Source: Escherichia phage vB_EcoM_HZ_ZJUN4. Taken from it: DNA of 64,000 bases. Of the stretch, positions 1-42,687 are shown in pieces. The translations under genes and the position numbers were made by a program. Position 1 is the stretch's first letter. The number at the start of each line of letters is the position of its first letter. The stretch lies in the sequence record PP216085; one strand, 5' to 3'. The notes under the pieces are model-generated. The model had not been told where the DNA came from, made no database searches, and worked only from the letters and a program-made list of their open reading frames with translations.

Positions 1-27
1 AAATCTCACTAATTGAACGAGGTTCAT

Positions 28-945
28 ATGGATTTAGAAATGATGCTGGATGAAGATTACAAAGAAGGAATTTGCTTAATTGACTTTAGTCAAATTGCAC
101 TTTCGACTGCTCTAGTAAACTTTCCAGATAAAGAAAAAATTAATTTATCAATGGTTCGTCATTTGATATTGAACTCAATTAAGTTTAATGTCAAAAAAGC
201 AAAAACTCTTGGATACACTAAAATTATACTGTGTATCGATAACGCAAAATCAGGATATTGGCGTCGTGATTTTGCTTATTATTATAAGAAAAACCGTGGA
301 AAAGCACGAGAAGAATCTACTTGGGACTGGGAAGGTTATTTTGAATCCAGTCATAAAGTTATAGATGAATTGAAAGCTTATATGCCATACATTGTTATGG
401 ATATTGATAAGTATGAAGCAGATGACCACATTGCTGTTCTTGTTAAAAAGTTCTCTTTAGAAGGACACAAGATTTTAATCATTTCATCGGATGGTGACTT
501 TACTCAACTTCATAAGTATCCAAATGTTAAGCAATGGTCACCGATGCATAAGAAATGGGTTAAAATTAAAAGCGGTTCTGCTGAAATTGACTGCATGACT
601 AAAATCCTTAAAGGTGATAAAAAGGATAACGTCGCTTCAGTTAAAGTACGATCTGACTTTTGGTTTACCAGAGTTGAAGGTGAACGAACTCCTTCAATGA
701 AAACCTCTATTGTTGAAGCTATTGCTAATGACCGTGAGCAAGCTAAGGTGCTTCTCACAGAATCTGAATATAATCGTTATAAAGAAAATTTAGTTCTAAT
801 TGATTTTGATTATATTCCTGATAATATTGCTTCAAACATTGTGAATTACTATAATTCATATAAATTACCACCGCGTGGCAAAATTTATTCATATTTTGTA
901 AAAGCGGGTCTTTCTAAATTAACTAATAGCATTAATGAATTTTGA
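28..945 (+). CDS. rnh: RNase H (5'-3' exonuclease/flap endonuclease), 305 aa
   Basis: Translation MDLEMMLDEDYKEGICLIDF... matches T4 RNase H from memory over full length; GAGG RBS 5 nt upstream of ATG at 28; ORF-track start at 13 is a TTG extension. Confidence 0.93.
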   Translation: MDLEMMLDEDYKEGICLIDFSQIALSTALVNFPDKEKINLSMVRHLILNSIKFNVKKAKTLGYTKIILCIDNAKSGYWRRDFAYYYKKNRGKAREESTWDWEGYFESSHKVIDELKAYMPYIVMDIDKYEADDHIAVLVKKFSLEGHKILIISSDGDFTQLHKYPNVKQWSPMHKKWVKIKSGSAEIDCMTKILKGDKKDNVASVKVRSDFWFTRVEGERTPSMKTSIVEAIANDREQAKVLLTESEYNRYKENLVLIDFDYIPDNIASNIVNYYNSYKLPPRGKIYSYFVKAGLSKLTNSINEF

Positions 946-953
946 GGTGAATA

Positions 954-1223
954 ATGGCTAAAAAAGAAATGGTTGAATTTGATGAAGCTATCCATGGCGA
1001 AGACTTGGCTAAATTTATTAAAGAAGCATCTGATCATAAACTGAAAATTTCTGGTTATAATGAATTGATTAAAGATATTCGAATTCGTGCCAAAGATGAA
1101 CTTGGCGTTGATGGTAAGATGTTTAATCGTCTATTAGCTTTGTATCATAAAGATAACCGTGATGTGTTTGAAGCTGAAACCGAAGAGGTAGTTGAACTTT
1201 ATGACACAGTTTTCTCTAAATGA
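954..1223 (+). CDS. dsbA: dsDNA-binding protein DsbA (late transcription enhancer), 89 aa
   Basis: 89 aa ORF MAKKEMVEFDEAIHGEDLAKF... in conserved position between rnh and gene 33; size and sequence match T4 DsbA. Confidence 0.88.
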   Translation: MAKKEMVEFDEAIHGEDLAKFIKEASDHKLKISGYNELIKDIRIRAKDELGVDGKMFNRLLALYHKDNRDVFEAETEEVVELYDTVFSK

Positions 1224-1539
1224 TATTCGTCCGGTCGATGAGACCGGTCTTTCAGAAAAAGAACTTTCAATTAAGAAAGAAAAGGATGAAATAGCAAAGC
1301 TTCTTGACCGTCAAGAAAATGGATTTATTATTGAAAAAATGGTAGAAGAGTTTGGAATGAGTTATCTTGAAGCTACAACAGCATTCTTGGAAGAAAATTC
1401 TATTCCTGAAACCCAATTTGCTAAATTTATTCCTTCGGGTATAATTGAAAAAATTCAGTCAGAAGCTATTGACGAAAATCTTTTACGTCCTTCTGTAGTT
1501 CGTTGTGAAAAAACTAATACATTAGATTTTCTACTATGA
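1201..1539 (+). CDS. 33: gp33 late-transcription co-activator, 112 aa
   Basis: MTQFSLNDIRPVDETGLSEKE... from ATG at 1201; overlaps dsbA 3' end; ORF-track start at 1192 is TTG. Confidence 0.9.
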   Translation: MTQFSLNDIRPVDETGLSEKELSIKKEKDEIAKLLDRQENGFIIEKMVEEFGMSYLEATTAFLEENSIPETQFAKFIPSGIIEKIQSEAIDENLLRPSVVRCEKTNTLDFLL

Positions 1540-2189
1540 TTAAACTCCGCATGCCTGCTGGTGGTGAAAGATACATTGATGGTAAATCAGTTTATAAATT
1601 ATACTTAATGATAAAACAACATATGAATGGAAAGTATGATGTAATTAAGTATAATTGGTGCATGCGGGTGTCTGATGCCGCTTATCAAAAGCGAAGGGAT
1701 AAGTATTTTTTCCAGAAGTTATCAGAAAAATATAAATTAAAGGAACTTGCTTTAATCTTTATAAGCAATCTTGTTGCTAACCAGGATGCTTGGATTGGTG
1801 ACATCTCTGACGCTGATGCACTTGTGTTTTATCGTGAATATATCGGACGCTTAAAGCAAATTAAATTTAAGTTTGAAGAAGATATTCGCAACATTTATTA
1901 TTTTAGTAAAAAAGTTGAAGTTTCTGCTTTTAAAGAAATTTTTGAATATAATCCAAAAGTTCAATCAAGTTATATTTTTAAACTACTTCAATCGAATATA
2001 ATTTCGTTTGAGACGTTTATCTTGCTTGATTCGTTTTTAAATATAATTGATAAACATGATGAACAGACTGATAATTTAGTCTGGAATAATTATTCTATAA
2101 AGTTAAAGGCTTATAGAAAAATTTTAAATATTGATTCACAGAAAGCCAAAAGTGTTTTCATTGAAACTGTGAAATCCTGTAAGTATTGA
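1536..2189 (+). CDS. 59: gp59 helicase loader, 217 aa
   Basis: MIKLRMPAGGERYIDGKSVYKLYLMIKQ..., 217 aa as in T4; start overlaps gene 33 stop (ATGA). Confidence 0.95.
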   Translation: MIKLRMPAGGERYIDGKSVYKLYLMIKQHMNGKYDVIKYNWCMRVSDAAYQKRRDKYFFQKLSEKYKLKELALIFISNLVANQDAWIGDISDADALVFYREYIGRLKQIKFKFEEDIRNIYYFSKKVEVSAFKEIFEYNPKVQSSYIFKLLQSNIISFETFILLDSFLNIIDKHDEQTDNLVWNNYSIKLKAYRKILNIDSQKAKSVFIETVKSCKY

Positions 2190-2190
2190 T

Positions 2191-2823
2191 ATGAATATAG
2201 TATATTGGTTTACATTTGAAGACCGTGTCAAAAATAAGACTCCGCCGTACTACTATATCGGCAGTAAATTAAATTGCTCATTTGAGAATGGAATAATATA
2301 TGACTCTTCCGGAAAGGAATACTGGAGCTCGTGCAAACAAAAAAGATTTTTAAATGCGGTGATGCTTCAAAAACCGAGCGTTAAAATAATTCAAATTGAT
2401 GATGATTTGGATGTTATTGAAGCAGAGCGAAAATACCAACTTGAAGTAAATGCCAGAGATAATCCAGACTATTTTAATCTGGTATATGCTGGCGGCGGAT
2501 TTGGTGTGAGTGGTGAAACTCATCCAGCCAAAGACCCGGAAGTTAGAGAGCATATGAGATTGGCTAATTATATGAACCGTGACGATTTTAGACCTTGGAA
2601 AACATCACGAGCTAATATAGAGTCTTGGAAATTATCTCATATTGCTTACGAGAATTATGTGTTATTATTATCCTCTAATCTGTACGGTAAAACTCCTGGA
2701 TGGCGAAGAGTTAAAGGTAATATAAATATAACTGATACAACTGCTAAATCGATGGTAAAGTATTTCAACTCAGGTTGGATACCTCTCGAAGACCCAGAGT
2801 ATTGCGAATTATGCCAGCTATGA
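2191..2823 (+). CDS. segG: GIY-YIG family homing endonuclease (SegG-like), 210 aa
   Basis: N-terminal GIY-YIG-like module (IVYWFTF ... PYYYIGSK) followed by conserved R/E/N-containing stretch; occupies the slot between genes 59 and 32 where T4 ORF 32.1/segG lies. Confidence 0.6.
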   Translation: MNIVYWFTFEDRVKNKTPPYYYIGSKLNCSFENGIIYDSSGKEYWSSCKQKRFLNAVMLQKPSVKIIQIDDDLDVIEAERKYQLEVNARDNPDYFNLVYAGGGFGVSGETHPAKDPEVREHMRLANYMNRDDFRPWKTSRANIESWKLSHIAYENYVLLLSSNLYGKTPGWRRVKGNINITDTTAKSMVKYFNSGWIPLEDPEYCELCQL

Positions 2824-2873
2824 GGTAAAGTGTCATAGCACCAACTGTTAATTAAATTAAAAAGGAAATAAAA
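2824..2873 (+). promoter_or_regulatory. gene 32 translational operator (pseudoknot plus unstructured A/U-rich leader bound by gp32)
   Basis: TGAGGTAAAGTGTCATAGCACCAACTGTTAATTAAATTAAAAAGGAAATAAAAATG matches the classic T4 gene 32 autoregulatory leader. Confidence 0.7.
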
Positions 2874-3782
2874 ATGTTTAAACGTAAATCTACTGCTGAA
2901 CTCGCTGCACAAATGGCTAAACTGGCTGGAAATAAAGGTGGTTTTTCTTCTGAAGATAAAGGCGAGTGGAAACTGAAACTCGACAATGCAGGTAACGGCC
3001 AAGCAGTAATTCGTTTTCTTCCGTCTAAAAATGATGAACAAGCACCATTCGCACTTCTTGTAAATCACGGTTTCAAGAAAAATGGTAAATGGTATATCGA
3101 AACATGCTCATCTACCTACGGTGATTACGATTCTTGTCCAGTATGTCAGTACATCAGTAAAAATGATTTGTATAACACTGACAATAAAGAGTATGGTCTT
3201 GTTAAACGTAAAACTTCTTACTGGGCTAACATTCTTGTAGTAAAAGACCCAGCTGCTCCAGAAAATGAAGGTAAAGTATTTAAATACCGTTTCGGTAAGA
3301 AAATCTGGGATAAAATCAATGCAATGATTGCAGTTGATGTTGAAATGGGTGAAACTCCGGTTGATGTAACTTGTCCGTGGGAAGGTGCTAACTTTGTACT
3401 GAAAGTTAAACAAGTTTCTGGTTTTAGTAACTACGACGAATCTAAATTCCTGAATCAATCTGCGATTCCAAACATTGATGATGAATCTTTCCAGAAAGAA
3501 CTGTTCGAACAAATGGTTGACCTTTCTGAAATGACTTCTAAAGATAAATTCAAATCGTTTGAAGAACTGAGCACTAAGTTCAGTCAAGTTATGGGAACTG
3601 CTGCTATGGGTGGTGCCGCAGCAACTGCCGCTAAGAAAGCTGATAAAGTTGCTGATGATTTGGATGCATTTAATGTTGATGACTTCAAAACAAAAACTGA
3701 AGATGATTTTATGAGCTCAAGCTCTGGCAGTTCATCTAGTGCTGATGACACGGACCTGGATGACCTTTTGAATGACCTTTAA
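2874..3782 (+). CDS. 32: gp32 single-stranded DNA-binding protein, 302 aa
   Basis: [52 protein letters not shown]..., acidic Ser/Asp-rich C-terminus; matches T4 gp32. Confidence 0.97.
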
Positions 3783-3804
3783 TAGATTATATTACTAATT
3801 AATT

Positions 3805-3830
3805 GGGGACCTCTAGGGTCCCCTTTTTTA
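3805..3830 (+). terminator. rho-independent terminator after gene 32
   Basis: GGGGACC-TCTA-GGGTCCCC stem-loop followed by TTTTTT. Confidence 0.75.
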
Positions 3831-3852
3831 TTTCAAAAATTTTCACAAAGTG

Positions 3853-3882
3853 GTTTACAAGCATAAAGCTTTATGGTACTAT
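3853..3882 (+). promoter_or_regulatory. early sigma70-type promoter
   Basis: GTTTACA -35 element, 17 bp spacer containing palindrome CATAAAGCTTTATG, -10 TACTAT. Confidence 0.5.
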
Positions 3883-3928
3883 ACAACTATCGGCAATACT
3901 GCTGATGATGATTAAAGAGGAAAATAAC

Positions 3929-4156
3929 ATGGCTAAAATTGATATTGATGTTGTTGATTTTGAATATATTGAAGAAATTATTCGTAATCGTTATCCTGAA
4001 CTCCGTATTACAAGCGCACTAAATGACCCCAATTGCAATGTTTCAGTTGTTATTGAAGGTCCTTTAAATCGTCTTGAACAATTTATGATTAATGAATATT
4101 GTGACGGTATGGATGCTGAAGATGTAGAATTTTACACAGGATTTATTGAGCAGTAA
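3929..4156 (+). CDS. hypothetical small early protein, 75 aa (frd.3-like position)
   Basis: ATG at 3929 with AAGAGG RBS 8 nt upstream; ORF-track start at 3803 lies inside the gene 32 terminator and upstream of the promoter, so the shorter start is preferred. Confidence 0.55.
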
Positions 4157-4163
4157 TTATTAA

Positions 4164-4179
4164 GGGGCTATCAAGCCCC
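4164..4179 (+). other. intercistronic GC-rich stem-loop
   Basis: GGGGCT-ATCA-AGCCCC hairpin between two small ORFs; no clear U-run. Confidence 0.4.
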
Positions 4180-4200
4180 TATTAAAATGAGGAAAACACA

Positions 4201-4566
4201 ATGTATATCGGTAGAAAATATGAACTTGTTCCAAGACTTATTGATACATTTATTAATTATCGCCCGCGTTCTAATTCATCAATAGTTAAAATTATTCAAG
4301 AAAATGGCGGATGGTTTGAAGTTAAAGAAGCTTTCTTTGCTGATGGATTTAGAGTAATAAAACACATTGAATGCGCTAATGGAAAGCATTTTTACTTCAA
4401 CGTCTGTGAAGACGAATTTCATTGTTTCCGCGAGTATAAAGAACTGACTTCTGAAGAAGATGAAGTCGAAGACAAGGTTTCTGGCGTAACAAAAATTCAC
4501 TGCATTGTAGATGAAAACAATGTAGACGAAATCATTGAACTTTTACGAAAAACTTTCAAAAAGTAG
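4201..4566 (+). CDS. hypothetical early protein, 121 aa
   Basis: ORF with TGAGGA RBS; conserved-position small ORF between 32 and frd. Confidence 0.55.
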   Translation: MYIGRKYELVPRLIDTFINYRPRSNSSIVKIIQENGGWFEVKEAFFADGFRVIKHIECANGKHFYFNVCEDEFHCFREYKELTSEEDEVEDKVSGVTKIHCIVDENNVDEIIELLRKTFKK

Positions 4567-4595
4567 TTTACAGAAGGGTAGTAGTGTGATACTAT
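4566..4595 (+). promoter_or_regulatory. early sigma70-type promoter
   Basis: GTTTACA, spacer with GGGTAGTA/TATTACCC dyad, extended -10 TGTGATACTAT. Confidence 0.5.
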
Positions 4596-4620
4596 TACCC
4601 TATCAACTGAGGAGAATAAA

Positions 4621-4863
4621 ATGAGATTACAACGCCAGAGCATCAAAGATTCAGAAGTTAGAGGTAAATGGTATTTTAATATCATCGGTAAAGATTCTGA
4701 ACTTGTTGAAAAAGCTGAACATCTTTTACGTGATATGGGATGGGAAGATGAATGCGATGGATGTCCTCTTTATGAAGATGGAGAAAGCGCAGGATTCTGG
4801 ATTTACCATTCTGACGTTGAACAGTTTAAAGCTGATTGGAAAATTGTGAAAAAGTCTGTTTAA
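4621..4863 (+). CDS. hypothetical early protein, 80 aa
   Basis: ORF with GAGGAG RBS immediately upstream. Confidence 0.55.
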   Translation: MRLQRQSIKDSEVRGKWYFNIIGKDSELVEKAEHLLRDMGWEDECDGCPLYEDGESAGFWIYHSDVEQFKADWKIVKKSV

Positions 4864-4873
4864 GGAAAATAAT

Positions 4874-5700
<827 letters not shown>

Positions 5701-5720
5701 AATAACGCGTGGCGGAAAAT

Positions 5721-6071
5721 ATGAACTTTAATTATTATCCTATTCTATTAGAAAAAGACGCGAAACAACCAAAATGGCAGGGTCCTCAGTTTATTAAAGG
5801 CGTCTATCAATTAGTAGTTCCCAAAGATAAGATTTATAGCAGCAGTTATTGCACTGAATCCGCTTGCAGTATTTTCGGTAATAGTTCTCCGTATTGGAAT
5901 TTTGATATAAAATTGGATAGAAATATCGATATTTGGTTGAAAGCTATGGATATTGGCAATATCACGTTTGATGAGAATAATTATCATATTATTGGTCGTT
6001 TTTCCAAACGTGGTAAAGAATTATATTTCACTCCTGAAATCGAAAGAAAATTTGATGCTAAACCGTATTGA
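5721..6071 (+). CDS. hypothetical protein, about 116 aa, inserted between frd and td
   Basis: ORF MNFNYYPILLEKDAKQPKWQGPQF... (ORF-track GTG start at 5709; ATG at 5721); no similarity I recognise. Confidence 0.45.
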   Translation: MNFNYYPILLEKDAKQPKWQGPQFIKGVYQLVVPKDKIYSSSYCTESACSIFGNSSPYWNFDIKLDRNIDIWLKAMDIGNITFDENNYHIIGRFSKRGKELYFTPEIERKFDAKPY

Positions 6072-6116
6072 TTATTTAGCTTCATAAAATGTATTATAAT
6101 TTATATAAGGTACTAA

Positions 6117-6977
6117 ATGAAACAATACCAAGATTTAATTAAAGACATTTTTGAAAATGGCTATGAAACTGATGACCGAACAGGCACAGGAACAATTGCT
6201 TTGTTCGGTACTAAATTACGCTGGGATTTAACTAAAGGTTTTCCTGCAGTAACAACTAAGAAGCTCGCCTGGAAAGCTTGCATTGCTGAGCTACTTTGGT
6301 TTTTATCAGGAAGCACAAATGTCAATGATTTGCGATTAATTCAACATGATTCATTAATTCAAGGCAAAACAGTCTGGGATGAAAATTACGAAAATCAAGC
6401 AAAAGATTTAGGATATCATAGTGGTGAACTTGGTCCAATTTATGGAAAACAGTGGCGTGATTTTGGCGGTGTAGACCAAATTATAGAAGTTATTGATCGT
6501 ATTAAAAAATTGCCAAATGATAGGCGTCAAATTGTTTCAGCATGGAATCCAGCTGAACTTAAACATATGGCATTACCACCTTGTCATATGTTTTATCAGT
6601 TTAATGTGCGTAATGGATATTTGGATTTACAGTGGTATCAAAGAAGTGTTGACGTGTTCTTGGGCTTGCCATTCAACATTGCATCATATGCTGCATTAGT
6701 TCATATTGTAGCTAAGATGTGTAATCTTATTCCAGGAGATTTGATATTTTCTGGCGGTAATACTCATATCTATATGAATCACGTAGAACAATGTAAAGAA
6801 ATTTTGCGTCGTGAACCTAAAGAGCTTTGTGAACTGGTAATAGGCGGATTGCCTTATAAATTCCGCCATCTTTCTACTAAAGAACAATTGGAATATGTTC
6901 TTAAACTCAGGCCTAAAGATTTCGTTCTTAAAGGTTACGAATCACACCCTCCTATTAAAGGAAAAATGGCGGTGTAA
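6117..6977 (+). CDS. td: thymidylate synthase, 286 aa, uninterrupted (no group I intron)
   Basis: MKQYQDLIKDIFENGYETDDRTGTGTIALFG...; continuous 286 aa reading frame including catalytic PCH motif; AAGG RBS. Confidence 0.97.
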   Translation: MKQYQDLIKDIFENGYETDDRTGTGTIALFGTKLRWDLTKGFPAVTTKKLAWKACIAELLWFLSGSTNVNDLRLIQHDSLIQGKTVWDENYENQAKDLGYHSGELGPIYGKQWRDFGGVDQIIEVIDRIKKLPNDRRQIVSAWNPAELKHMALPPCHMFYQFNVRNGYLDLQWYQRSVDVFLGLPFNIASYAALVHIVAKMCNLIPGDLIFSGGNTHIYMNHVEQCKEILRREPKELCELVIGGLPYKFRHLSTKEQLEYVLKLRPKDFVLKGYESHPPIKGKMAV

Positions 6978-7000
6978 TTAATTATTAATTGTGAGGATAT

Positions 7001-7264
7001 ATGATTTTACGATTTAAAGATACTTCTGGTGTAGTTCTTTTTACACTTCCTAATCCAAGTGAGTTAGAAGTTCCAGGACCAAATCAGCCTATTATCATTT
7101 ATGGCAAAAAATATTATACTCATAAAATGACTCGTGAGTATTTTGATAATAAAATTTCTACAGTTAAAACTTCTTCAGATTGTTACTATGATATTACTGT
7201 TTTAACGGAAAAACAATATGACGAATTATCACCGCGCGGGCCGTCTATGCCAAGTAGTGAATAA
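7001..7264 (+). CDS. hypothetical protein, 87 aa (nrdA.1-like position)
   Basis: ORF with GAGGA RBS between td and nrdA. Confidence 0.5.
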
Positions 7265-7544
7265 ATATAAATCCGACTTTGATGTTAATATTCACCGTGG
7301 TACATTTTGGGGAAATTACGTCGGTAAAGATGCTGGCAGCCGGGAGGCTGCCATTGAATTATTCAAAAAAGATTTTATACGTCGAATTAAATCCGGAGAA
7401 ATAACTAAAGCACATTTAGAGCCTTTACGTGGAATGAGGCTAGGATGCACATGTAAACCAAAGCCGTGTCATGGTGATATAATAGCTCATATAGTTAACC
7501 GATTGTTTAAAGACGATTTTCAAGTTGAGGACTTATGCAATTAA
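7218..7544 (+). CDS. hypothetical protein, 108 aa, Cys/His-rich C-terminal motif (nrdA.2-like position)
   Basis: ORF overlapping both neighbours; motif [12 protein letters not shown] suggests metal binding. Confidence 0.5.
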
Positions 7545-9799
7545 TTAATGTTATCAAAAGTAGTGGTGTTTCTCAGAGCTTTGACCCGCAAAAAATTATT
7601 AAAGTTTTATCTTGGGCAGCTGAAGGAACATCTGTAGATCCTTATGAATTATATGAAAATATTAAATCATATCTCCGTGATGGAATGACAACTGATGACA
7701 TTCAGACTATTGTCATTAAGGCTGCTGCGAATTCTATTTCAGTTGAAGAGCCTGATTATCAATACGTAGCTGCGCGCTGTTTAATGTTCGCTCTTCGTAA
7801 GCATGTTTACGGGCAATATGAACCGCGTTCATTTATTGACCATATTTCTTACTGTGTAAATGAAGGTAAATACGACCCTGAATTGTTGTCAAAATATTCA
7901 GCAGAAGAAATTACATTTTTAGAATCAAAAATTAAGCACGAGCGGGATATGGAATTTACTTATTCCGGGGCGATGCAATTAAAAGAAAAATATCTCGTTA
8001 AAGATAAAACCACTGGTCAAATTTATGAAACTCCGCAGTTTGCATTTATGACTATTGGAATGGCATTGCATCAAGATGAACCTGTTGACAGATTAAAACA
8101 TGTTATTCGTTTTTATGAAGCAGTATCTACTCGACAGATTTCATTACCAACTCCTATTATGGCTGGATGTCGTACTCCAACTCGGCAGTTTAGTTCATGT
8201 GTTGTTATTGAGGCAGGTGATTCGCTGAAGTCTATCAATAAGGCTTCCGCTTCAATTGTTGAATATATCTCCAAACGCGCTGGAATTGGAATTAACGTTG
8301 GTATGATTCGTGCCGAAGGTTCTAAGATTGGCACAGGTGAAGTGCGTCATACTGGTGTTATTCCTTTTTGGAAACATTTTCAGACTGCTGTTAAATCATG
8401 TTCACAGGGCGGAATTCGTGGCGGCGCTGCTACTGCTTATTATCCTATTTGGCATTTGGAAGTTGAAAATCTTCTCGTTTTGAAAAATAACAAAGGTGTA
8501 GAAGAAAACCGTATCCGTCATATGGATTATGGTGTTCAGCTGAATGATTTGATGATGGAACGATTCGGAAAGAACGATTACATTACTTTATTCAGTCCGC
8601 ATGAAATGGGTGGCGAGCTTTATTATTCTTATTTTAAAGACCAAGACCGTTTCCGCGAATTATACGAAGCAGCAGAAAAAGACCCTAATATTCGCAAAAA
8701 GCGTATTAAAGCCCGTGAACTATTTGAATTACTCATGACTGAACGATCAGGAACAGCAAGGATTTATGTACAGTTCATTGATAATACGAATAACTATACT
8801 CCGTTTATTCGTGAAAAGGCACCTATTCGTCAGAGTAACTTGTGTTGTGAAATTGCTATTCCAACAAATGATGTGAATAGTCCTGATGCTGAAATTGGAT
8901 TGTGTACGTTATCTGCATTTGTGTTGGATAACTTCGATTGGCAAGACCAAGATAAAATTAATGAATTAGCAGAAGTTCAAGTTCGCGCTCTTGATAATCT
9001 TTTGGATTACCAAGGATATCCAGTTCCTGAAGCAGAAAAAGCTAAAAAGCGTCGAAACCTTGGCGTAGGTGTTACTAACTATGCAGCTTGGCTGGCAAGT
9101 AACTTTGCTTCTTATGAAGATGCTAACGATTTAACACATGAACTATTTGAGAGATTACAGTATGGACTCATTAAAGCATCCATTAAACTCGCCAAAGAAA
9201 AAGGACCTTGCGAGTATTATTCAGACACTCGTTGGTCTCGAGGCGAATTACCTATCGACTGGTACAATAAAAAGATTGACCAAATCGCAGCTCCAAAATA
9301 CGTTTGTGACTGGTCGTCGCTGCGGGAAGACCTTAAGCTCTTTGGCATCCGTAATAGCACATTATCAGCACTTATGCCATGTGAGTCATCTTCCCAAGTT
9401 TCTAACAGTACAAACGGTATCGAGCCTCCACGTGGACCAGTCTCTGTTAAAGAATCAAAAGAGGGTTCCTTTAATCAAGTCGTGCCCAATATTGAGCATA
9501 ACATAGACCTCTATGATTATACGTGGAAATTAGCTAAGAAAGGCAATAAACCTTATCTTACGCAGGTAGCTATTATGCTGAAATGGGTATGTCAATCAGC
9601 TTCAGCGAATACATATTATGACCCGCAGATTTTTCCAAAAGGAAAGGTTCCAATGTCTGTAATGATTGATGACATGCTATACGGATGGTATTATGGCATT
9701 AAAAACTTCTATTATCATAATACTCGTGATGGTTCCGGTACTGATGATTACGAAATAGAAACTCCAAAAGCTGAAGATTGTTCATCCTGTAAATTATGA
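7535..9799 (+). CDS. nrdA: ribonucleotide reductase large subunit, 754 aa
   Basis: 754 aa; N-terminal ATP-cone-like region, catalytic Cys-containing motifs (NLCCEI, PCESS), C-terminal CSSCKL; matches T4 NrdA. Confidence 0.97.
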   Translation: MQLINVIKSSGVSQSFDPQKIIKVLSWAAEGTSVDPYELYENIKSYLRDGMTTDDIQTIVIKAAANSISVEEPDYQYVAARCLMFALRKHVYGQYEPRSFIDHISYCVNEGKYDPELLSKYSAEEITFLESKIKHERDMEFTYSGAMQLKEKYLVKDKTTGQIYETPQFAFMTIGMALHQDEPVDRLKHVIRFYEAVSTRQISLPTPIMAGCRTPTRQFSSCVVIEAGDSLKSINKASASIVEYISKRAGIGINVGMIRAEGSKIGTGEVRHTGVIPFWKHFQTAVKSCSQGGIRGGAATAYYPIWHLEVENLLVLKNNKGVEENRIRHMDYGVQLNDLMMERFGKNDYITLFSPHEMGGELYYSYFKDQDRFRELYEAAEKDPNIRKKRIKARELFELLMTERSGTARIYVQFIDNTNNYTPFIREKAPIRQSNLCCEIAIPTNDVNSPDAEIGLCTLSAFVLDNFDWQDQDKINELAEVQVRALDNLLDYQGYPVPEAEKAKKRRNLGVGVTNYAAWLASNFASYEDANDLTHELFERLQYGLIKASIKLAKEKGPCEYYSDTRWSRGELPIDWYNKKIDQIAAPKYVCDWSSLREDLKLFGIRNSTLSALMPCESSSQVSNSTNGIEPPRGPVSVKESKEGSFNQVVPNIEHNIDLYDYTWKLAKKGNKPYLTQVAIMLKWVCQSASANTYYDPQIFPKGKVPMSVMIDDMLYGWYYGIKNFYYHNTRDGSGTDDYEIETPKAEDCSSCKL

Positions 9800-9850
9800 T
9801 ATAATTTGACTCACGGACGAGTCACTATCTATTAACTAAGCGGAAAATTT

Positions 9851-11029
9851 ATGAGCACAGTTTTTAATACAAATCCAGTTGATGTTTTAAAAGAACCTAT
9901 GTTCTTCGGTTCAGGTCTTGGTATTGCGCGTTATGATATTCAACGTCATAAAGTTTTTGAAGATTTAACTGAAAAGCAGTTGTCATTTTTCTGGCGTCCT
10001 GAAGAAGTAAACTTGATGATGGATGCTGCACAATTTAACAAGCTTCCTCAGTATCAACAAGATATTTTTACTAATAACCTGAAGTATCAATCACTTCTAG
10101 ATAGCATTCAGGGTCGTGCACCGTCTGCTGTACTTATGTCGTTAATTTCAGACCCAAGTCTTGATACATGGGTTGCTACATGGACTTTTAGTGAAACTAT
10201 TCACAGTCGTTCATATACTCATATCATGCGAAATCTTTATACTGATCCATCGAAGGTATTTGATGAGATTGTACTAGATGAAGCTATCATGAAACGTGCT
10301 GAATCTATCGGTCGCTATTATGATGATGTTCTGACTAAAACCCGTGAATGGGAAAATGCTAAAGAATTTACAGAACTAGCTAAAGAATCTCCTGATGCTG
10401 TTTTTCGTTTAAATCGAGCTATTAAACAAGAAGCCGAAGCTAAACGAGCACTAATGAAATCTCTTTACCTCTGTTTGCACGTTATTAATGCCTTAGAAGC
10501 TATTCGTTTTTATGTATCTTTTGCATGTACCTTTAACTTCCATAAGAACATGGAAATCATGGAAGGTAATGCCAAGATTATGAAGTTCATTGCACGTGAT
10601 GAGCAGCTTCACCTTAAAGGCACCCAATATATTATTCGTCAACTTCAATCCGGTACTGATGGCGATGAATGGGTTAAAATTGCTCAAGAGTGTGAACAAG
10701 AAGCAGTTGATATTTTCATGGAAGTTAACCGCCAAGAAAAAGATTGGGCAGTTCATTTATTTAAAGATGGCGATGTTCCTGGATTAAATACAAATAGCAT
10801 GTGGAGCTTTATTGATTACTTAACTGTATCTCGTATGAAACAGTGCGGTCTTCCATGCCCAATTACCGATGCTCCGGTTAAACATCCATATCCTTGGATT
10901 CGTGAATATCTTAATTCTGATAATGTTCAATCCGCGCCACAAGAAGTAGAACTGTCATCTTACCTTGTTGCACAGATTGATAATGATGTTGATGATAAAG
11001 TTATGATGAGTTTTAAAAAATACTTTTAA
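9851..11029 (+). CDS. nrdB: ribonucleotide reductase small subunit, 392 aa, uninterrupted
   Basis: 392 aa continuous ORF MSTVFNTNPVDVLKEPMFFGSG...; ferritin-like di-iron ligand motifs; no intron. Confidence 0.96.
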   Translation: MSTVFNTNPVDVLKEPMFFGSGLGIARYDIQRHKVFEDLTEKQLSFFWRPEEVNLMMDAAQFNKLPQYQQDIFTNNLKYQSLLDSIQGRAPSAVLMSLISDPSLDTWVATWTFSETIHSRSYTHIMRNLYTDPSKVFDEIVLDEAIMKRAESIGRYYDDVLTKTREWENAKEFTELAKESPDAVFRLNRAIKQEAEAKRALMKSLYLCLHVINALEAIRFYVSFACTFNFHKNMEIMEGNAKIMKFIARDEQLHLKGTQYIIRQLQSGTDGDEWVKIAQECEQEAVDIFMEVNRQEKDWAVHLFKDGDVPGLNTNSMWSFIDYLTVSRMKQCGLPCPITDAPVKHPYPWIREYLNSDNVQSAPQEVELSSYLVAQIDNDVDDKVMMSFKKYF

Positions 11030-11033
11030 GGAG

Positions 11034-11056
11034 TGGGCCGTAAGGCCCATTTTATT
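11034..11056 (+). terminator. stem-loop/terminator between nrdB and denA
   Basis: TGGGCC-GTAA-GGCCCA (GNRA tetraloop) followed by TTTTATT. Confidence 0.5.
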
Positions 11057-12644
<1,588 letters not shown>

Positions 12645-12647
12645 GCT

Positions 12648-12701
12648 GTTTACAAGTCCCTCATGTTGTGTTACAGTAGTCTTACTGACACAACATGAGG
12701 A
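12648..12701 (+). promoter_or_regulatory. early promoter fused to 13-bp dyad that sequesters the alc RBS in read-through transcripts
   Basis: GTTTACA -35, -10 TACAGT; arms CCTCATGTTGTGT (12659-12671) and ACACAACATGAGG (12688-12700), the latter containing the GAGG Shine-Dalgarno. Confidence 0.5.
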
Positions 12702-12708
12702 CTTTATG

Positions 12709-13212
12709 ATGGATTTACAGCTTATTACTACTGAAATGGTCGTTGAAGCATATGGTGATACTACAGATGGGATTTCTGTATTTAAAGGAAATCGTCGAGT
12801 TGGATATATCACCGATCTTAAGAAAGATTTAGCTAAGCAAGTCAAGCGGAAAACGACCATCAAAGAATATCGAAATCGTCGTCTTGAGCAAGCCCGTGAT
12901 ATGCTTCCTGATGCGGTTGAGGAGATGAAAGTCTTTTTAGAAAATCAGCTTGCGAAATATGATTGTGATGTGTTCATTAATCAGACTCAACCTAATGTTC
13001 ATATCAATAATTGTAAATGCTACATCATCGTTAATCCTTTGACGGGAAAACATCGTCTTGGAATTAGTAATCCAAATCGTAGTGCATCAGATATGGCAGA
13101 AGATGTTGAGGCATGCTTTAAAATTTCTAAATCTCCGGCTGAACATCATATTTTAATTAACGGTCTTTCTCAAGACGATATTGTAGAGGTTATTAAAACT
13201 TTATGCATGTAA
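12709..13212 (+). CDS. alc: Alc (blocks elongation on cytosine-containing DNA), 167 aa
   Basis: MDLQLITTEMVVEAYGDTTDGISVFKGNRRVGYI... matches T4 Alc; ORF track begins one Met earlier (12706). Confidence 0.9.
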   Translation: MDLQLITTEMVVEAYGDTTDGISVFKGNRRVGYITDLKKDLAKQVKRKTTIKEYRNRRLEQARDMLPDAVEEMKVFLENQLAKYDCDVFINQTQPNVHINNCKCYIIVNPLTGKHRLGISNPNRSASDMAEDVEACFKISKSPAEHHILINGLSQDDIVEVIKTLCM

Positions 13213-13556
13213 GTAATTTTACAGCTGGATTGCTATTACTTGTAATAGCATTTGGCGGAACATCTATTATTTTAAAAAATAAGGTAGAAAGATTAGAAAC
13301 ATCGGTTACTGAAATTACAAAAACGGCCAATGAAAACGCTTTAGCATTAGATAATTTGCGAATTCAGTATAATTATATTGATGCGATGAATAATAAAAAT
13401 CGTGAGGCAATTGCTGCTATTGAGCGTGAAAATGAAAAACTGCGCAAAGATGCAAAGAAGGCGGATGTGGTGGCTCATAAGCCAGGATTGGTTGAAAAAC
13501 AAATCAACAACTCCTTCAACAAGTTCGCAGAAGACATCCAGGACCTTTCTAAATGA
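13203..13556 (+). CDS. pseT.3: i-spanin (inner-membrane spanin subunit), 117 aa
   Basis: N-terminal transmembrane helix (FTAGLLLLVIAFGGTSIIL) followed by coiled-coil-rich periplasmic domain; overlaps next ORF; T4 PseT.3 equivalent. Confidence 0.75.
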   Translation: MHVSNFTAGLLLLVIAFGGTSIILKNKVERLETSVTEITKTANENALALDNLRIQYNYIDAMNNKNREAIAAIERENEKLRKDAKKADVVAHKPGLVEKQINNSFNKFAEDIQDLSK

Positions 13557-13852
13557 TTAAACTATCGGCAGTAATATTATCTATTGGTCTTCTAGTTGGT
13601 TGTTCGACAAAGCCTCTAGAAGTAAAGAAAGAAACAGTTCATCCTAATTGGCCCGTGCAAATAAAGTCATATGATGAAGCTAAACTATCTTGGCAAGTTA
13701 AAGTTATCGATGGTAAAGCTTGGGTCGGTATGCCATTCGAAGATTCCCAGGAATTTCGTATTTGGCTTAATGATGTAAAACGATATGTACATGACCAAAA
13801 AACTATGATATGTTATTATCGTCAAGAGCTAAAAGAGGATAAATGCAAATGA
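13553..13852 (+). CDS. pseT.2: o-spanin (outer-membrane lipoprotein spanin subunit), 99 aa
   Basis: Signal peptide with lipobox LLVGC (MIKLSAVILSIGLLVGCS); T4 PseT.2 equivalent. Confidence 0.75.
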   Translation: MIKLSAVILSIGLLVGCSTKPLEVKKETVHPNWPVQIKSYDEAKLSWQVKVIDGKAWVGMPFEDSQEFRIWLNDVKRYVHDQKTMICYYRQELKEDKCK

Positions 13853-14075
13853 TTTCATGGCATCAATTTGAACATCTCAAAGGATTGATTTATGAATCCG
13901 AGATGGCTGCAATGATTTATGGACGCCAGATTCAACGGTTAGAATCTTTACCTCCAACTAATGATGTTTTATTAGCTCAATCTCGGGCTAATCTTAAAAA
14001 TGAATACCAAAATAAGTGGGGTAAAGCATCTAAAGACTTGCATGATTATATTCAATCATTAGTTGAGAAAAATAA

Positions 14076-14079
<4 letters not shown>
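13843..14079 (+). CDS. hypothetical protein, 78 aa
   Basis: ORF overlapping neighbours in operon-like arrangement. Confidence 0.5.
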
Positions 14080-15283
<1,204 letters not shown>

Positions 15284-15347
15284 TGGCTTTGCACCATGAA
15301 ACTTGGGATATTATTAATTGGCTTGAAGAAAATTATGTGAGGTAAAT

Positions 15348-15623
15348 ATGTTTCCGACTTACTCTAAAATCGTAGAAGTGGTGTTTAGCCAAATTATAGC
15401 TAATAATATGTTTGAAAAACTTGATAATGCAGCTGAGCTTCGAATCCACGCTCAAGTGACTCATGTATTGAACACTTTGCTTCCAGACCAGGTGGATTCT
15501 ATTGCAATTACGCTGTATCCAGGTTCCGCGCATATCATTGTCGTATTTGGTCTTGATGCTGAGTTAGTTATCAAAGGCGATATTCGCTTTGAATCACAGA
15601 CATCAGAATTCAAAGCAATTTAA
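15348..15623 (+). CDS. hypothetical protein, 91 aa
   Basis: ORF with GTGAGG RBS. Confidence 0.5.
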   Translation: MFPTYSKIVEVVFSQIIANNMFEKLDNAAELRIHAQVTHVLNTLLPDQVDSIAITLYPGSAHIIVVFGLDAELVIKGDIRFESQTSEFKAI

Positions 15624-15625
15624 TA

Positions 15626-15664
15626 GTTTACTTTACGGTAGAGTTGTGATATTATAGCTCTACC
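15626..15664 (+). promoter_or_regulatory. early sigma70-type promoter
   Basis: GTTTACT, extended -10 TGTGATATTAT flanked by GGTAGAG/CTCTACC dyad. Confidence 0.5.
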
Positions 15665-15685
15665 AAAACAAATGAGGAAATTGAA

Positions 15686-15922
15686 ATGCTAAGTGAAAAA
15701 CCAATTACTGCTAAAGAATTCCAAGAAAAAGTTAAACTATTTGCTCAGGAATTGGTAAATAAGGTTTCTGAACGATTTCCTGAAACATCGGTTCGTGTTA
15801 TTACCGAAACTCCTCGTTCAGTATTAGTAATTGTGAATCCAGGTGATGGTGACCAAATATCGCATCTCAAATTGGATTTTGATGGATTAGTTGAAGCACA
15901 AAGGGTGTATGGCGTACTATGA
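15686..15922 (+). CDS. hypothetical protein, 78 aa
   Basis: ORF with TGAGGAAA RBS. Confidence 0.5.
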   Translation: MLSEKPITAKEFQEKVKLFAQELVNKVSERFPETSVRVITETPRSVLVIVNPGDGDQISHLKLDFDGLVEAQRVYGVL

Positions 15923-16257
15923 TGAATTTAACTGATATAATTGATAATTGTCTTGAAAATGATACTGGCGATCATAGAGCGCTTGACTCTGAAACATCAC
16001 AGTTCATTAGAATAACTTTAATGAACGATACTCTGGTGAACAGTATTCATCCTTCTGTGTATGATGCTATTATTGTGACGAAGTATCCAGTTGAGCTTCA
16101 CAAAAAGATGACTGGTGCAGTTTTTATTGATAAGAAAAACCGCTTTAAAGATGGGCAGAATATAATTAGTTCTGTTATTAAAAGTATAACTAAACTTCGT
16201 CACGAAATTTATCGTGTTGAAACTGCTAAATCTGCTTATCTGGTGATTATGAAATGA
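15919..16257 (+). CDS. hypothetical protein, 112 aa
   Basis: ORF overlapping neighbours (ATGA couplings). Confidence 0.5.
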   Translation: MMNLTDIIDNCLENDTGDHRALDSETSQFIRITLMNDTLVNSIHPSVYDAIIVTKYPVELHKKMTGAVFIDKKNRFKDGQNIISSVIKSITKLRHEIYRVETAKSAYLVIMK

Positions 16258-16835
16258 AAGCGAGTACAGTACTTCAAATTGCATATTTAGTATCACAGGA
16301 ATCGAAATGTTGCTCCTGGAAGGTAGGAGCAGTAATTGAAAAGAATGGACGTATTATTTCTACCGGATATAATGGTTCACCTGCCGGGGGTGTGAACTGT
16401 TGTGATTATGCTACTGAGCAAGGTTGGTTGCTAAATAAACCTAAACATACTATCATTCAAGGTCATAAGCCTGAATGCGTATCATTTGGTTCAACTGATC
16501 GTTTTGTCTTGGCGAAAGAACATCGTAGTGCTCACTCGGAATGGTCGTCTAAAAATGAAATTCATGCTGAGCTAAATGCAATTTTGTTTGCTGCACGAAA
16601 TGGTTCTTCTATTGAAGGTGCTACTATGTATGTAACACTTTCTCCTTGTCCGGATTGCGCAAAAGCGATAGCTCAATCTGGTATTAAAAAGCTGGTTTAT
16701 TGCGAAACATACGATAAAAATAAACCTGGCTGGGATGATATTCTGCGAAATGCAGGTATTGAAGTGTTTAATGTTCCTAAGAAAAACTTGAATAAGTTAA
16801 ACTGGGAAAATATCAACGAATTCTGTGGTGAATAA
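16254..16835 (+). CDS. cd: dCMP deaminase, 193 aa
   Basis: Zinc-binding deaminase motifs HAE and PCxxC (SPCPDCAKAIAQSG); matches T4 Cd. Confidence 0.95.
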   Translation: MKASTVLQIAYLVSQESKCCSWKVGAVIEKNGRIISTGYNGSPAGGVNCCDYATEQGWLLNKPKHTIIQGHKPECVSFGSTDRFVLAKEHRSAHSEWSSKNEIHAELNAILFAARNGSSIEGATMYVTLSPCPDCAKAIAQSGIKKLVYCETYDKNKPGWDDILRNAGIEVFNVPKKNLNKLNWENINEFCGE

Positions 16836-17071
16836 TGAAATTTCGTTTGGTACAACTCACAGCAATTAGTTCTTATTCTAATGAGAACATCTCGTTTGCT
16901 GTAGAGTATAAGAAATATTTTTTCTCTAAATGGAAACAGTATTATAAGACAAATTGGGTTTGTATTGATAGACCATATAGTTGGAAATCTGATTTAGAAA
17001 AATGCCAAAAATTGCTTTCCACTCTTAAAGAACGTGGAACAACTCATATTAAAACTGTAATAGGTAAATAA
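16835..17071 (+). CDS. hypothetical protein, 78 aa
   Basis: ORF coupled to cd stop. Confidence 0.5.
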   Translation: MKFRLVQLTAISSYSNENISFAVEYKKYFFSKWKQYYKTNWVCIDRPYSWKSDLEKCQKLLSTLKERGTTHIKTVIGK

Positions 17072-17380
17072 ATGAAACTGACAACTGAACAGAAAGTAGC
17101 AATTCGTGAAATTTTGAAAACTAAATTGTCCATGGGTATTTCAAACGTGGTTTTTGAAAAGTCTGATGGTACTATTCGTACTATGAAAGGCACTCGTGAT
17201 GCTGACTTTATGCCAACTATGCAAACCGGTAAATTAACTGAATCTACTCGGAAAGAATCTACTGATATGATTCCAGTATTTGATGTTGAGCTTGGTGCAT
17301 GGCGAGGTTTTTCTATTGACAAATTGATTTCAGTTAATGGTATGAAAGTTGAGCATTTGCTCCAATTTATTGGTAAATAA
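17072..17380 (+). CDS. hypothetical protein, 102 aa
   Basis: ORF coupled to upstream ORF. Confidence 0.5.
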   Translation: MKLTTEQKVAIREILKTKLSMGISNVVFEKSDGTIRTMKGTRDADFMPTMQTGKLTESTRKESTDMIPVFDVELGAWRGFSIDKLISVNGMKVEHLLQFIGK

Positions 17381-17436
17381 ATGCTTTAAGAATTATTTGT
17401 TATTATTAATTCATCTGTTAACAAAAAGGAAAAACG

Positions 17437-17772
17437 ATGTCTGAAGTACAACAGCTACCAATTCGTGCTGTCGGTGAATATGTTATTTTAGTTTCTGAAC
17501 CTGCACAAGCCGGTGATGAAGAAGTCACAGAATCAGGACTTATCATCGGTAAACGTGTCCAAGGTGAAGTTCCTGAACTGTGTGTAGTTCACTCTGTTGG
17601 TCCTGATGTTCCTGAAGGTTTCTGCGAAGTTGGTGATTTGACTTCTCTTCCAGTTGGTCAAATTCGAAACGTTCCGCATCCTTTTGTAGCTCTGGGTCTT
17701 AAGCAGCCAAAAGAAATTAAACAAAAATTCGTTACTTGTCACTATAAAGCTATTCCATGTCTCTATAAGTGA
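17437..17772 (+). CDS. 31: gp31 co-chaperonin (GroES analogue for capsid folding), 111 aa
   Basis: [40 protein letters not shown]... matches T4 gp31. Confidence 0.93.
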
Positions 17773-17780
17773 TATAAATA
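17773..17780 (+). promoter_or_regulatory. late promoter (TATAAATA) upstream of rIII
   Basis: Exact TATAAATA on + strand directly after gene 31 stop. Confidence 0.45.
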
Positions 17781-17919
17781 ATAATATGAATTGGGTGTCG
17801 GAATAATAAGTTAACCGAACAATTCTATGTGGTAGTCTACAACTGAGAGATCTGTCGAAAGAAGATGAAATTCAGAAGAACGTGGCTACCGAGTTTTAAT
17901 CTCTAACGAGAATTTTTAA

Positions 17920-18168
17920 ATGATTAAACAATTACAACACGCTCTCGAACTGCAACGAAACGCATGGAATAATGGTCACGAAAACTATGGCGCATCTATT
18001 GATGTTGAAGCCGAAGCTCTTGAAATCCTGCGTTATTTCAAACATCTGAATCCTGCTCAAACTGCACTAGCTGCTGAGCTCCAGGAAAAAGATGAACTTA
18101 AATATGCTAAGCCTCTGGCTTCTGCTGCACGAAAAGCAGTTCGTCACTTTGTGGTAACACTGAAGTAA
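17920..18168 (+). CDS. rIII: rIII lysis-inhibition accessory protein, 82 aa
   Basis: MIKQLQHALELQRNAWNNGHENYGASIDVEAEALEILRYFKHLNPAQ... matches T4 RIII. Confidence 0.9.
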   Translation: MIKQLQHALELQRNAWNNGHENYGASIDVEAEALEILRYFKHLNPAQTALAAELQEKDELKYAKPLASAARKAVRHFVVTLK

Positions 18169-18288
18169 TTATGTTGACGAGGTTTATGGTTATCCTGTCG
18201 GTAAATATTCAAAACCTAAGTACCCCTTTGAGGGCTTTCGCAGGCAATGCCAATAAGTCCTGCATTTTCATTTAAAAGAGAATTTATA

Positions 18289-23274: not shown

Positions 23275-23297
23275 GAATAAACACTAGAGAGGATATG

Positions 23298-25391
23298 ATG
23301 GAACTCATTACAGAATTATTTGACGAAGATACTACTCTTCCGATTACAAACTTAAATCCAAAGAAGAAAATACCGCAAATTTTTTCAGTTCATGTTGATG
23401 ACGCAATTGAACAACCAGGCTTTCGTTTATGTACCTATACATCTGGAGGTGATACTAACCGTGATCTAAAGATGGGCGATAAAATGATGCACATTGTTCC
23501 TTTTACATTAACTGCTAAAGGTTCAATTGCTAAATTGAAAGGTCTCGGTCCAAGCCCAATTAATTACATCAATTCAGTTTTTACTGTTGCGATGCAAACG
23601 ATGCGTCAGTATAAAATTGATGCCTGCATGCTTCGTATTCTTAAGTCTAAAACTGCCGGTCAAGCTCGACAAATTCAAGTTATTGCTGATAGACTTATCC
23701 GTAGTCGTTCGGGTGGCAGATACGTCCTTCTTAAGGAACTCTGGGATTACGATAAAAAGTATGCATATATTCTTATACATCGCAAAAATGTATCACTAGA
23801 AGACATTCCAGGAGTTCCAGAAATTAGTACCGAGCTCTTTACTAAAGTTGAATCGAAGGTCGGCGATGTTTATATCAATAAAGATACTGGAGCTCAAGTA
23901 ACTAAAAATGAGGCAATTGCAGCATCTATTGCGCAAGAAAATGATAAACGTTCTGACCAAGCTGTAATCGTTAAAGTTAAAATTTCCCGTAGAGCAATTG
24001 CACAAAGTCAGTCATTAGAATCTTCTAGATTTGAAAGTGAATTATTCCAGAAATATGAATCTACCGCAGCTAATTTCAATAAACCTGCTACAGCTCCTTT
24101 AATTCCCGAAGCAGAAGAAATGAAGCTTGGAATTAATTCATTAGCTTCTAAAACTAAGGCAGCAAAAATTATTGCCGAAGGAACCGCAGATGAACTTCAC
24201 TATGACTATAAATTCTTTTCAAAAAGTGAGGTTAATGAAGTTTCTGAAAAAATTAAAGACGTAATTTTTAACGCGATCAAAAATGAACCAACTACTTCAA
24301 TAAAATGTTTAGAGAAGTATGCAGCAGCTATTAATAAATTCTTTGAAGAATATAAAGATACTTGGCTTGATAAACATAATAAAACTCGTAAAGGGCAGTC
24401 AGATGAAGTCTGGGAAGAAATAACTAAAAATTCCTGGAACGCAGCAAAAACTAAATTCCTCAAACGAATGATTTATAGCTTTTCTGGAATTGGTGCAGGT
24501 CCAATGATTGATATTACTATTGCCCGTGATGGTTCTAAATATACTCCATCGCAAAAGCGCGGCATTAGAGAGTATTGTGGATCAGGATATACTGACATCA
24601 ATAATCTTCTTTTAGGCCGCTACAATCCAGAACGATATGATGTAATGAGTGAAAAAGAAATTGAATCTGCGATAAATAATTTAGATTCAGCTTTTGAAAA
24701 TGGTGACCGTATACCAGAAGGCATTACAGTTTATCGTGCTCAAAGTATGACTGCTCCTATATACGAAGCGCTAGTTAAAAATAAAGTGTTCTATTTCAGA
24801 AATTTTGTATCTACTTCTTTAACTCCTATCATTTTTGGACGTTTTGGAATTACACATGCTGGTATCGGTCTTTTAGAACCAGAAGCTCGTAATGAATTAA
24901 CAGTTGATAAAAATGAAGAAGGAATAACTATTAATCCAAACGAAATAAGAGCGTATAAAGAAAATCCTGAATACGTTAAAGTTCAAATAGGATGGGCAAT
25001 TGATGGAGCTCATAAAGTTAATGTTGTATATCCAGGAAGTCTCGGAATAGCAACAGAAGCTGAAGTTATTCTACCACGCGGATTGATGGTCAAAGTTAAT
25101 AAAATAACTGATGCTTCTAATAATGACGGAACAACATCTAATAATACAAAACTCATTCAAGCTGAAGTTATGACTACGGAAGAACTCACCGAATCGGTAA
25201 TTTATGACGGTGACCGTCTAATGGAAACGGGTGAAGTAGTTGCAATGACAGATGATATTGAAATAGAAGACAGAGTTGACTTTGCATCATTTGTTTCATC
25301 AAATGTTAAACAGAAAGCAGAATCATCTCTCGGAATTATTGCGTCTTGCATAGATATTACAAACATGCCTTACAAGTTCGTTCAAGGATAA
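23298..25391 (+). CDS. alt: Alt ADP-ribosyltransferase (capsid-packaged, injected), 697 aa
   Basis: MELITELFDEDTTLPITNLNPKKKIPQIFSVHVDDAIEQPGFRLCTYTSGGDTNRDLKMGDKMMHIV... matches T4 Alt; C-terminal ART triad elements YRAQ, FVSTSL, EAEVILPRG. Confidence 0.93.
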   Translation: MELITELFDEDTTLPITNLNPKKKIPQIFSVHVDDAIEQPGFRLCTYTSGGDTNRDLKMGDKMMHIVPFTLTAKGSIAKLKGLGPSPINYINSVFTVAMQTMRQYKIDACMLRILKSKTAGQARQIQVIADRLIRSRSGGRYVLLKELWDYDKKYAYILIHRKNVSLEDIPGVPEISTELFTKVESKVGDVYINKDTGAQVTKNEAIAASIAQENDKRSDQAVIVKVKISRRAIAQSQSLESSRFESELFQKYESTAANFNKPATAPLIPEAEEMKLGINSLASKTKAAKIIAEGTADELHYDYKFFSKSEVNEVSEKIKDVIFNAIKNEPTTSIKCLEKYAAAINKFFEEYKDTWLDKHNKTRKGQSDEVWEEITKNSWNAAKTKFLKRMIYSFSGIGAGPMIDITIARDGSKYTPSQKRGIREYCGSGYTDINNLLLGRYNPERYDVMSEKEIESAINNLDSAFENGDRIPEGITVYRAQSMTAPIYEALVKNKVFYFRNFVSTSLTPIIFGRFGITHAGIGLLEPEARNELTVDKNEEGITINPNEIRAYKENPEYVKVQIGWAIDGAHKVNVVYPGSLGIATEAEVILPRGLMVKVNKITDASNNDGTTSNNTKLIQAEVMTTEELTESVIYDGDRLMETGEVVAMTDDIEIEDRVDFASFVSSNVKQKAESSLGIIASCIDITNMPYKFVQG

Positions 25392-37875: not shown

Positions 37876-37904
37876 GTCTAAATACCATGTAATAAATATA
37901 TCTA

Positions 37905-37912
37905 TATTTATA
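37905..37912 (-). promoter_or_regulatory. late promoter (TATAAATA on - strand) for uvsW
   Basis: + strand TATTTATA 30 nt upstream of uvsW start. Confidence 0.55.
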
Positions 37913-42682: not shown

Positions 42683-42687
42683 AAAGT

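Follow-up and report, generated by a model that had tools for sequence, protein, structure and literature searches.

Homing endonuclease genes and introns in a 64,000-nucleotide segment of Escherichia phage vB_EcoM_HZ_ZJUN4 compared with T4 and T2

We analysed a stretch of 64,000 nucleotides (nt) from Escherichia phage vB_EcoM_HZ_ZJUN4 (sequence record PP216085), referred to below as the window, for its complement of homing endonuclease genes and introns relative to phage T4. In the homologous span the T4 annotation lists six homing endonuclease elements: segG, the td intron with I-TevI, mobE (with nrdB.1), the nrdB intron with I-TevIII, segE and segD. The window is very probably a typical Tequatrovirus segment in which the T2 gene order is supplemented by segG between genes 59 and 32 and by an open reading frame (ORF) of 88 amino acids (aa) between genes 23 and 24, segG being the only one of the six T4 homing elements that it carries. 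A preliminary description of this DNA had claimed that its endonuclease and intron complement differs from that of T4. The complement does differ and each of the structural claims was confirmed by alignment against T4 and T2; however, the description had overlooked the absence of segE, and the pattern is not distinctive.

The comparison partners were T4 (NC_000866), T2 (AP018813), W143 (MZ189262) and GEP001 (PV173775). Aligned to NC_000866, the window corresponds to the reverse complement of ~150.7-85.5 kb and is collinear with it except for the gaps described below. A megablast search with window positions 1-14000 matched hundreds of Tequatrovirus genomes, with W143 at the top (97.9% identity in a single collinear piece), and positions 28001-53000 matched GEP001 at 98.2% identity in one collinear stretch. 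The identities of ~98% to W143 and GEP001 and of 94-97% to T4 and T2 extend over tens of kb and, together with the synteny, place the window in Tequatrovirus.

The one T4-type element that is present lies in the following neighbourhood:

1536-2189, + strand: gene 59 (helicase loader), the upstream flank of segG; Pfam T4_Gp59_N/C, E 1e-53; collinear with T4 and T2
2191-2823, + strand: segG, a free-standing GIY-YIG homing endonuclease gene, the sole T4-type one in the window
2874-3782, + strand: gene 32 (single-stranded DNA-binding protein); Pfam gp32, E 4.8e-66

The product of the ORF at 2191-2823 is identical to T4 SegG in 209 of 210 aa (99.5%) over its full length, L57V being the sole change. 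At the nucleotide level the gene is 98% identical to that of T4, and it matches phrog_7504 with an E value of 1.9e-133. It occupies the position between genes 59 and 32 on the same strand, its 3' end overlaps the gene 32 leader, its junctions align with those of T4 and its final 12 nt are common to the empty site of T2. The preliminary description had reported a GIY-YIG ORF resembling segG in this gap. The protein identity bears this out, but "segG-like" understates the case: judged by its sequence, the ORF is segG itself. The first 310 nt at the 5' end show 12 differences from T4, 11 of them synonymous, and the 3' half (2501-2800) shows none over 300 nt. According to the literature, this part of segG contains the promoters of gene 32 together with an RNase E site and a translational-operator pseudoknot (PMC2988022, PMC535899), and the identity of the 3' half to T4 fits these overlapping regulatory signals of gene 32. 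Gene 32 is also the published target of SegG (PMC2988022 Table 1). Its polymorphisms in the window form a mosaic of T4-like and T2-like positions.

The other elements on this side of the window would be expected in td and around nrdB, where we found the following features:

6117-6977, + strand: td (thymidylate synthase), intronless; 286-aa frame with a full-length Pfam match
7535-9799, + strand: nrdA; Pfam Ribonuc_red_lgC/lgN and ATP-cone
9800-9850, + strand: nrdA-nrdB spacer of 51 base pairs (bp), the empty mobE site; T4 mobE and nrdB.1 are missing
9851-11029, + strand: nrdB, intronless, a 392-aa ORF; its 5' part is a T2-type allele with the mapped MobE nick region

Both td (286 aa) and nrdB (392 aa) had been described as continuous frames without introns, and the alignments agree. 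The td gene is a single frame with no extra sequence across the T4 exon junction, the ~1 kb intron with I-TevI being missing exactly at 6665/6666. Likewise nrdB is one frame that aligns across the T4 exon junction, and the 598-nt intron is missing at ~10526/10527. Around this nrdB site the sequence departs from the T4 exon junction by 1 mismatch. A T4-type nrdB junction is the substrate of the functional I-TevIII of RB3, which cuts 14/16 bp upstream (PMC1865063). The I-TevIII of the T4 nrdB intron is defective. The distance between nrdA and nrdB, given earlier as about 50 bp without a mobE insertion, is 51 bp, with the ~700 bp of T4 mobE and nrdB.1 absent; the same gap is found in W143 and GEP001 as well as in T2. 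Downstream of it, at 9911-10030, nrdB differs from T2 at only 1-2 positions per 60 nt compared with 11-16 from T4 (27 in 120 nt). MobE has been shown to nick T2 nrdB in its 5' region, and by this route both mobE and the defunct nrdB intron enter T2 (PMC2790892).

NrdB is 392 aa long here and in T2 and 388 aa in T4, owing to a 4-aa indel in a hypervariable segment. In this segment (aa ~161-200, 10331-10450) the window, T4 and T2 mutually differ at 18-34 positions per 60 nt, while the remaining nrdB is >95% identical. A scan of the window for group I introns at Rfam gathering thresholds was negative but is uninformative, as a T4 control containing both introns was negative too. Rfam 15 at gathering thresholds misses the classic T4 td and nrdB introns and is unfit to exclude ORF-containing phage group I introns. 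A tblastn search of the whole window with T4 I-TevI, MobE, I-TevIII, NrdB.1, SegD and SegE found zero remnants (all E > 0.3).

The remaining two sites lie further into the window:

37876-37925, no strand assigned: 50-bp uvsW-inh spacer, the empty segE site; T4 segE (618 bp) is absent
42683-43016, + strand: 334-bp insert in the gap between genes 24 and 23, the slot of segD in T4; holds the 88-aa ORF (42749-43015), function unassigned

At the first site uvsW starts at 37875 (- strand) and inh at 37926 (+ strand), and segE, the sixth homing gene of the T4 span, is missing. Positions 37740-37919 match T2 throughout, whereas the opening ~120 nt of uvsW contain 32 differences from T4. Around the empty segE and mobE sites there are two allele types, linked to whether the endonuclease is present or absent; the window has T2-identical or T2-like alleles there, strongly diverged from T4.

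At the second site gene 24 (41363-42646) and gene 23 (43065-44630) are both on the - strand, and the gap between them contains a single small ORF on the + strand. Its ATG at 42749 is preceded by the Shine-Dalgarno sequence GAGGAG; the ORF is antisense to the late genes 23 and 24, has a sigma70-like promoter and shares a bidirectional terminator hairpin at 43029-43050. The product matches phrog_6003, which has no assigned function (E 7e-50). No similarity to SegD was detected (E 2.8) and no nuclease family was matched in Pfam or PHROGs, which upholds the earlier statement that the gap holds only an 88-aa ORF and no GIY-YIG gene of the size of segD. A SegD remnant was considered as a candidate and ruled out on these same two results. 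The broader proposal that the ORF is a degenerate remnant or a functional replacement of a segD-type endonuclease appears highly improbable. It could draw on the location of the ORF, which sits in the gap used by segD in T4 and runs antisense as segD does, and on phage LF82-8, where a homing endonuclease and the 88-aa ORF are annotated next to each other. However, besides the lack of similarity to SegD and to any nuclease family, the ORF has its own Shine-Dalgarno sequence and promoter-like site and has been kept intact in 86 records across several genera. The 334-bp cassette is absent from T2, and W143 and GEP001 are among the 86 phage records that have it; the genera with the ORF are Tequatrovirus, JS10/JS98-like phages and others.

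How the window came to hold so few of these elements can be read in more than one way. It is conceivable, though doubtful, that T4-type elements were once present and were later lost precisely, as opposed to never having invaded this backbone, and that the endonuclease-poor state arose in this way. The nearly T4-identical exon sequence at the nrdB intron site, with its 1 mismatch nearby, would suit such a loss, and so would the 100% identity of the segG 3' half to T4. Moreover segG was kept despite the T2-like flanking backbone, and the embedded gene 32 promoters would disfavour its loss (PMC2988022). Against this, the empty sites match those of T2 fully or almost fully, including the linked polymorphisms at the 5' ends of nrdB and uvsW, no element remnants occur in the window, and recombination with an element-free phage accounts for the data equally well.

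The segment with T2 gene order and segG would be expected to behave in mixed infections both as a donor and as a recipient. In the literature (as cited in PMC2330249, PMC535899 and PMC2988022), T4 SegG is an endonuclease that drives exclusion of T2 gene 32; it cuts gene 32 DNA of segG-free phages site-specifically and is preferentially inherited in crosses. With a single L57V difference from this protein, the product of the window gene would likewise cleave site-specifically gene 32 of co-infecting phages that have no segG, and double-strand-break repair would then copy segG and its flanking markers into them, so that they are preferentially inherited. Conversely, the empty sites would make the window phage a recipient. 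Its T2-type nrdB 5' region is of the kind nicked by MobE, and this region, the T2-identical uvsW 5' end and spacer and the nrdB intron site close to the T4 exon sequence together lead us to expect conversion by T4 elements. If the phage shared a host cell with T4, the corresponding loci would thus be expected to be converted by mobE, the nrdB intron, segE and probably the td intron, and perhaps also through T4 I-TevI and SegD. Published T4 x T2 studies are the ground for the relevance to marker exclusion that had been suggested for this phage.

Two observations weigh against this account. The Pfam model of the GIY-YIG domain (PF01541) did not match SegG even at E <= 10, and the homing site in td is heavily recoded, which leaves the susceptibility of the window phage to I-TevI uncertain. 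With regard to the first, other searches were equally negative: comparing SegG to the PDB sequences with phmmer gave noise only, and precomputed Pfam domains were found in 0 of 29 SegG homologues. In an alignment of 26 family members, however, no sequence departs from Y22-I23-G24, E79 and N96, and Y5 is conserved in nearly all. Y22, G24 and N96 also line up with I-TevI, SegD and SegE, though the catalytic Arg27 of I-TevI has no unambiguous counterpart. The family shares a conserved N-terminal domain of ~105 aa that is coupled to at least 3 different C-terminal domains, a modular layout expected for GIY-YIG homing endonucleases. In a Foldseek search against the PDB I-TevI ranked first, at a non-significant E value of 1.1, and the N-terminal domain was scored as having the GIY-YIG alpha/beta fold. 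The possibility that the ORF at 2191-2823 lacks GIY-YIG catalytic residues, raised with the first description, was not borne out in view of the conserved residues and the near-identity to T4 SegG. Support for counting the ORF between genes 59 and 32 among the GIY-YIG enzymes comes from its close match to T4 SegG, which has been characterised experimentally (PMC535899, PMC2330249, PMC2988022), and from the fold.

The second observation concerns a short interval of td:

6627-6686, + strand: recoded I-TevI homing-site patch in td; 16 of 60 positions differ from both T4 and T2, all synonymous

The patch reaches from the I-TevI cleavage motif to just beyond the intron insertion site at 6665/6666. 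The rest of td shows 5-6% differences, which gives a binomial P of ~2e-7 for the patch, an interval that was picked post hoc. Some of the changes switch the codon family (Arg CGC to AGA, Ser TCA to AGT). The cleavage motif at 6639-6643 reads CAAAG here and CAACG in T4 and T2; the critical C1 and G5 are retained, the two positions that the I-TevI cleavage motif requires (PMC5009752). This minority "RB32-type" td allele is common to W143, GEP001, RB32, HY01 and others (~28-32 records). In WL-3 this recoded exon-1 sequence is followed immediately by a td intron 96% identical to that of T4, and in JE01 partly recoded exons flank a td intron on both sides.

We consider it unlikely that the patch is an evolved or selected homing-site allele that resists I-TevI and keeps the lineage free of the intron. 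The concentration of synonymous changes on the interval between cleavage and insertion, against a much lower level elsewhere in td, points in this direction, as does the poor performance of many CNNNG triplets as I-TevI substrates (PMC5009752). All 28 of the 28 full-length matches to the recoded allele are intronless, which is partly so by construction as the query spans the junction. On the other hand, CAAAG retains C1 and G5, I-TevI is notoriously sequence-tolerant (PMC2988022, PMC5009752), and the introns beside recoded exon sequence in WL-3 and JE01 imply that the allele coexists with the intron. A clean resistance allele is accordingly a weakened candidate, since these two intron-bearing phages share the exon polymorphisms. 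A literature search for published I-TevI activity on the CAAAG motif found none. The more economical reading is that recombination accompanying homing has shuffled a set of old td alleles around the point of insertion. There is also a small chance that the RB32-type allele is a circulating variant of the homing site which lowers the efficiency of I-TevI cleavage or of intron homing. If that were true, it would be a field example, in T-even phages, of target-site escape in the life cycle of a homing endonuclease. The series of td alleles (T4, T2 and RB32 types and the WL-3 and JE01 mosaics) is a potential natural dataset on co-conversion tracts.

To place the window among its relatives we counted the elements in ~537 Tequatrovirus-level records, defined by >=90% identity to the structural region. 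RefSeq/GenBank duplicates and a few gene-sized records are among those counted, which makes the share of ~10-37% per T4 element approximate:

segG: 141 records
td intron (>=80% coverage): 197 records
nrdB intron: 118 records
mobE: 21 records with the full T4-type gene; some mobE-like 5' part in 139
segE: 159 records
segD: 53 records
88-aa cassette: 86 records

The absence of each T4 element is the majority state among the sequenced Tequatroviruses. This agrees with the published view of T4 as an endonuclease-rich outlier, most T-even genomes holding few endonuclease insertions (PMC2988022).

Several other features of the window touch on its annotation. One further GIY-YIG enzyme is encoded directly behind nrdB:

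11033-11467, + strand: denA (endonuclease II); Pfam GIY-YIG, E 8e-6; 98.6% identical to T4 DenA

Although it is a GIY-YIG enzyme, denA is a resident T4 gene and no homing element. Three small ORFs with unassigned functions are present in T2 and W143 and not in T4: an 81-aa ORF (phrog_3183) at 4874-5119 before frd, an ORF of ~115-120 aa (phrog_1928) at 5709-6071 between frd and td, which overlap in T4, and a 100-aa ORF at 14076-14378 between pseT.1 and pseT. Two full-length paralogues of the ADP-ribosyltransferase gene alt stand in tandem at 23295-25391 and 25395-27452 (698 and 685 aa, ~68% nt identity to each other). T2 likewise has two full alt paralogues, whereas T4 has a single alt and the remnants alt.-1 and alt.-2. 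At the far end of the window, the baseplate and short-tail-fibre genes at 58199-64000 (genes 12 to 8) show ~86% identity to T4 compared with 94-97% elsewhere, and the boundary between gene 12 and wac (57761-58198) fails to align with T4 altogether.

The finding as such is already known: it is routine comparative genomics, and near-identical configurations are found in GenBank. That T-even phages vary in homing endonuclease content, and that this variation is linked to marker exclusion, has been established knowledge for ~20 years. Beyond annotation the result matters little; there it allows the ORF at 2191-2823 to be named segG and keeps denA and the 88-aa ORF from being mis-annotated as mobile elements. 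A practical use lies in predicting which loci would undergo conversion when the phage infects together with T4-like phages, as in phage cocktails.

Among the known systems T2 is a close match in layout. From rnh to gene 23 it shares with the window the gene order, the intronless td, the 51-bp nrdA-nrdB gap, the 392-aa NrdB and the 50-bp inh-uvsW gap, and it also has the extra small ORFs around frd. T2 is collinear with the window over 2814-18170 and 19988-42682; within the regions of interest the window has just two insertions relative to it, segG (2191-2813) and the cassette at 42683-43016. Correspondingly, genes 59 and 32 of T2 are 99 bp apart without segG, its genes 23 and 24 are 83 bp apart without the 88-aa ORF, and its td homing site is another allele. 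T4 belongs to the same genus, has a 99.5% identical SegG at the same locus and shares DNA that is ~94-97% identical, but additionally holds the td intron with I-TevI, mobE with nrdB.1, the nrdB intron with I-TevIII, segE and segD.

What separates the closest relatives from the window is confined to cassettes of this kind. W143 is collinear over 1-14000 including segG and has the recoded td allele; it carries in addition a MobE-like ORF between uvsW and uvsW.1 and a 205-aa RB3_165-like ORF between genes 18 and 19, two sites that are empty in the window. GEP001 has the 88-aa ORF, the empty segE site and the recoded td allele as in the window, but no segG. With respect to the framework of intronless homing and marker exclusion by the Seg and Mob endonucleases of T4 (Edgell, Gibb & Belfort 2010, PMC2988022; Wilson & Edgell 2009, PMC2790892), the element that is present and all of the empty sites are those studied in T4 x T2 crosses, so that the behaviour to be expected fits this framework. 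Mechanistically there is nothing new in the window; what differs is the combination of elements, with segG alone and the 88-aa ORF, and the td allele.

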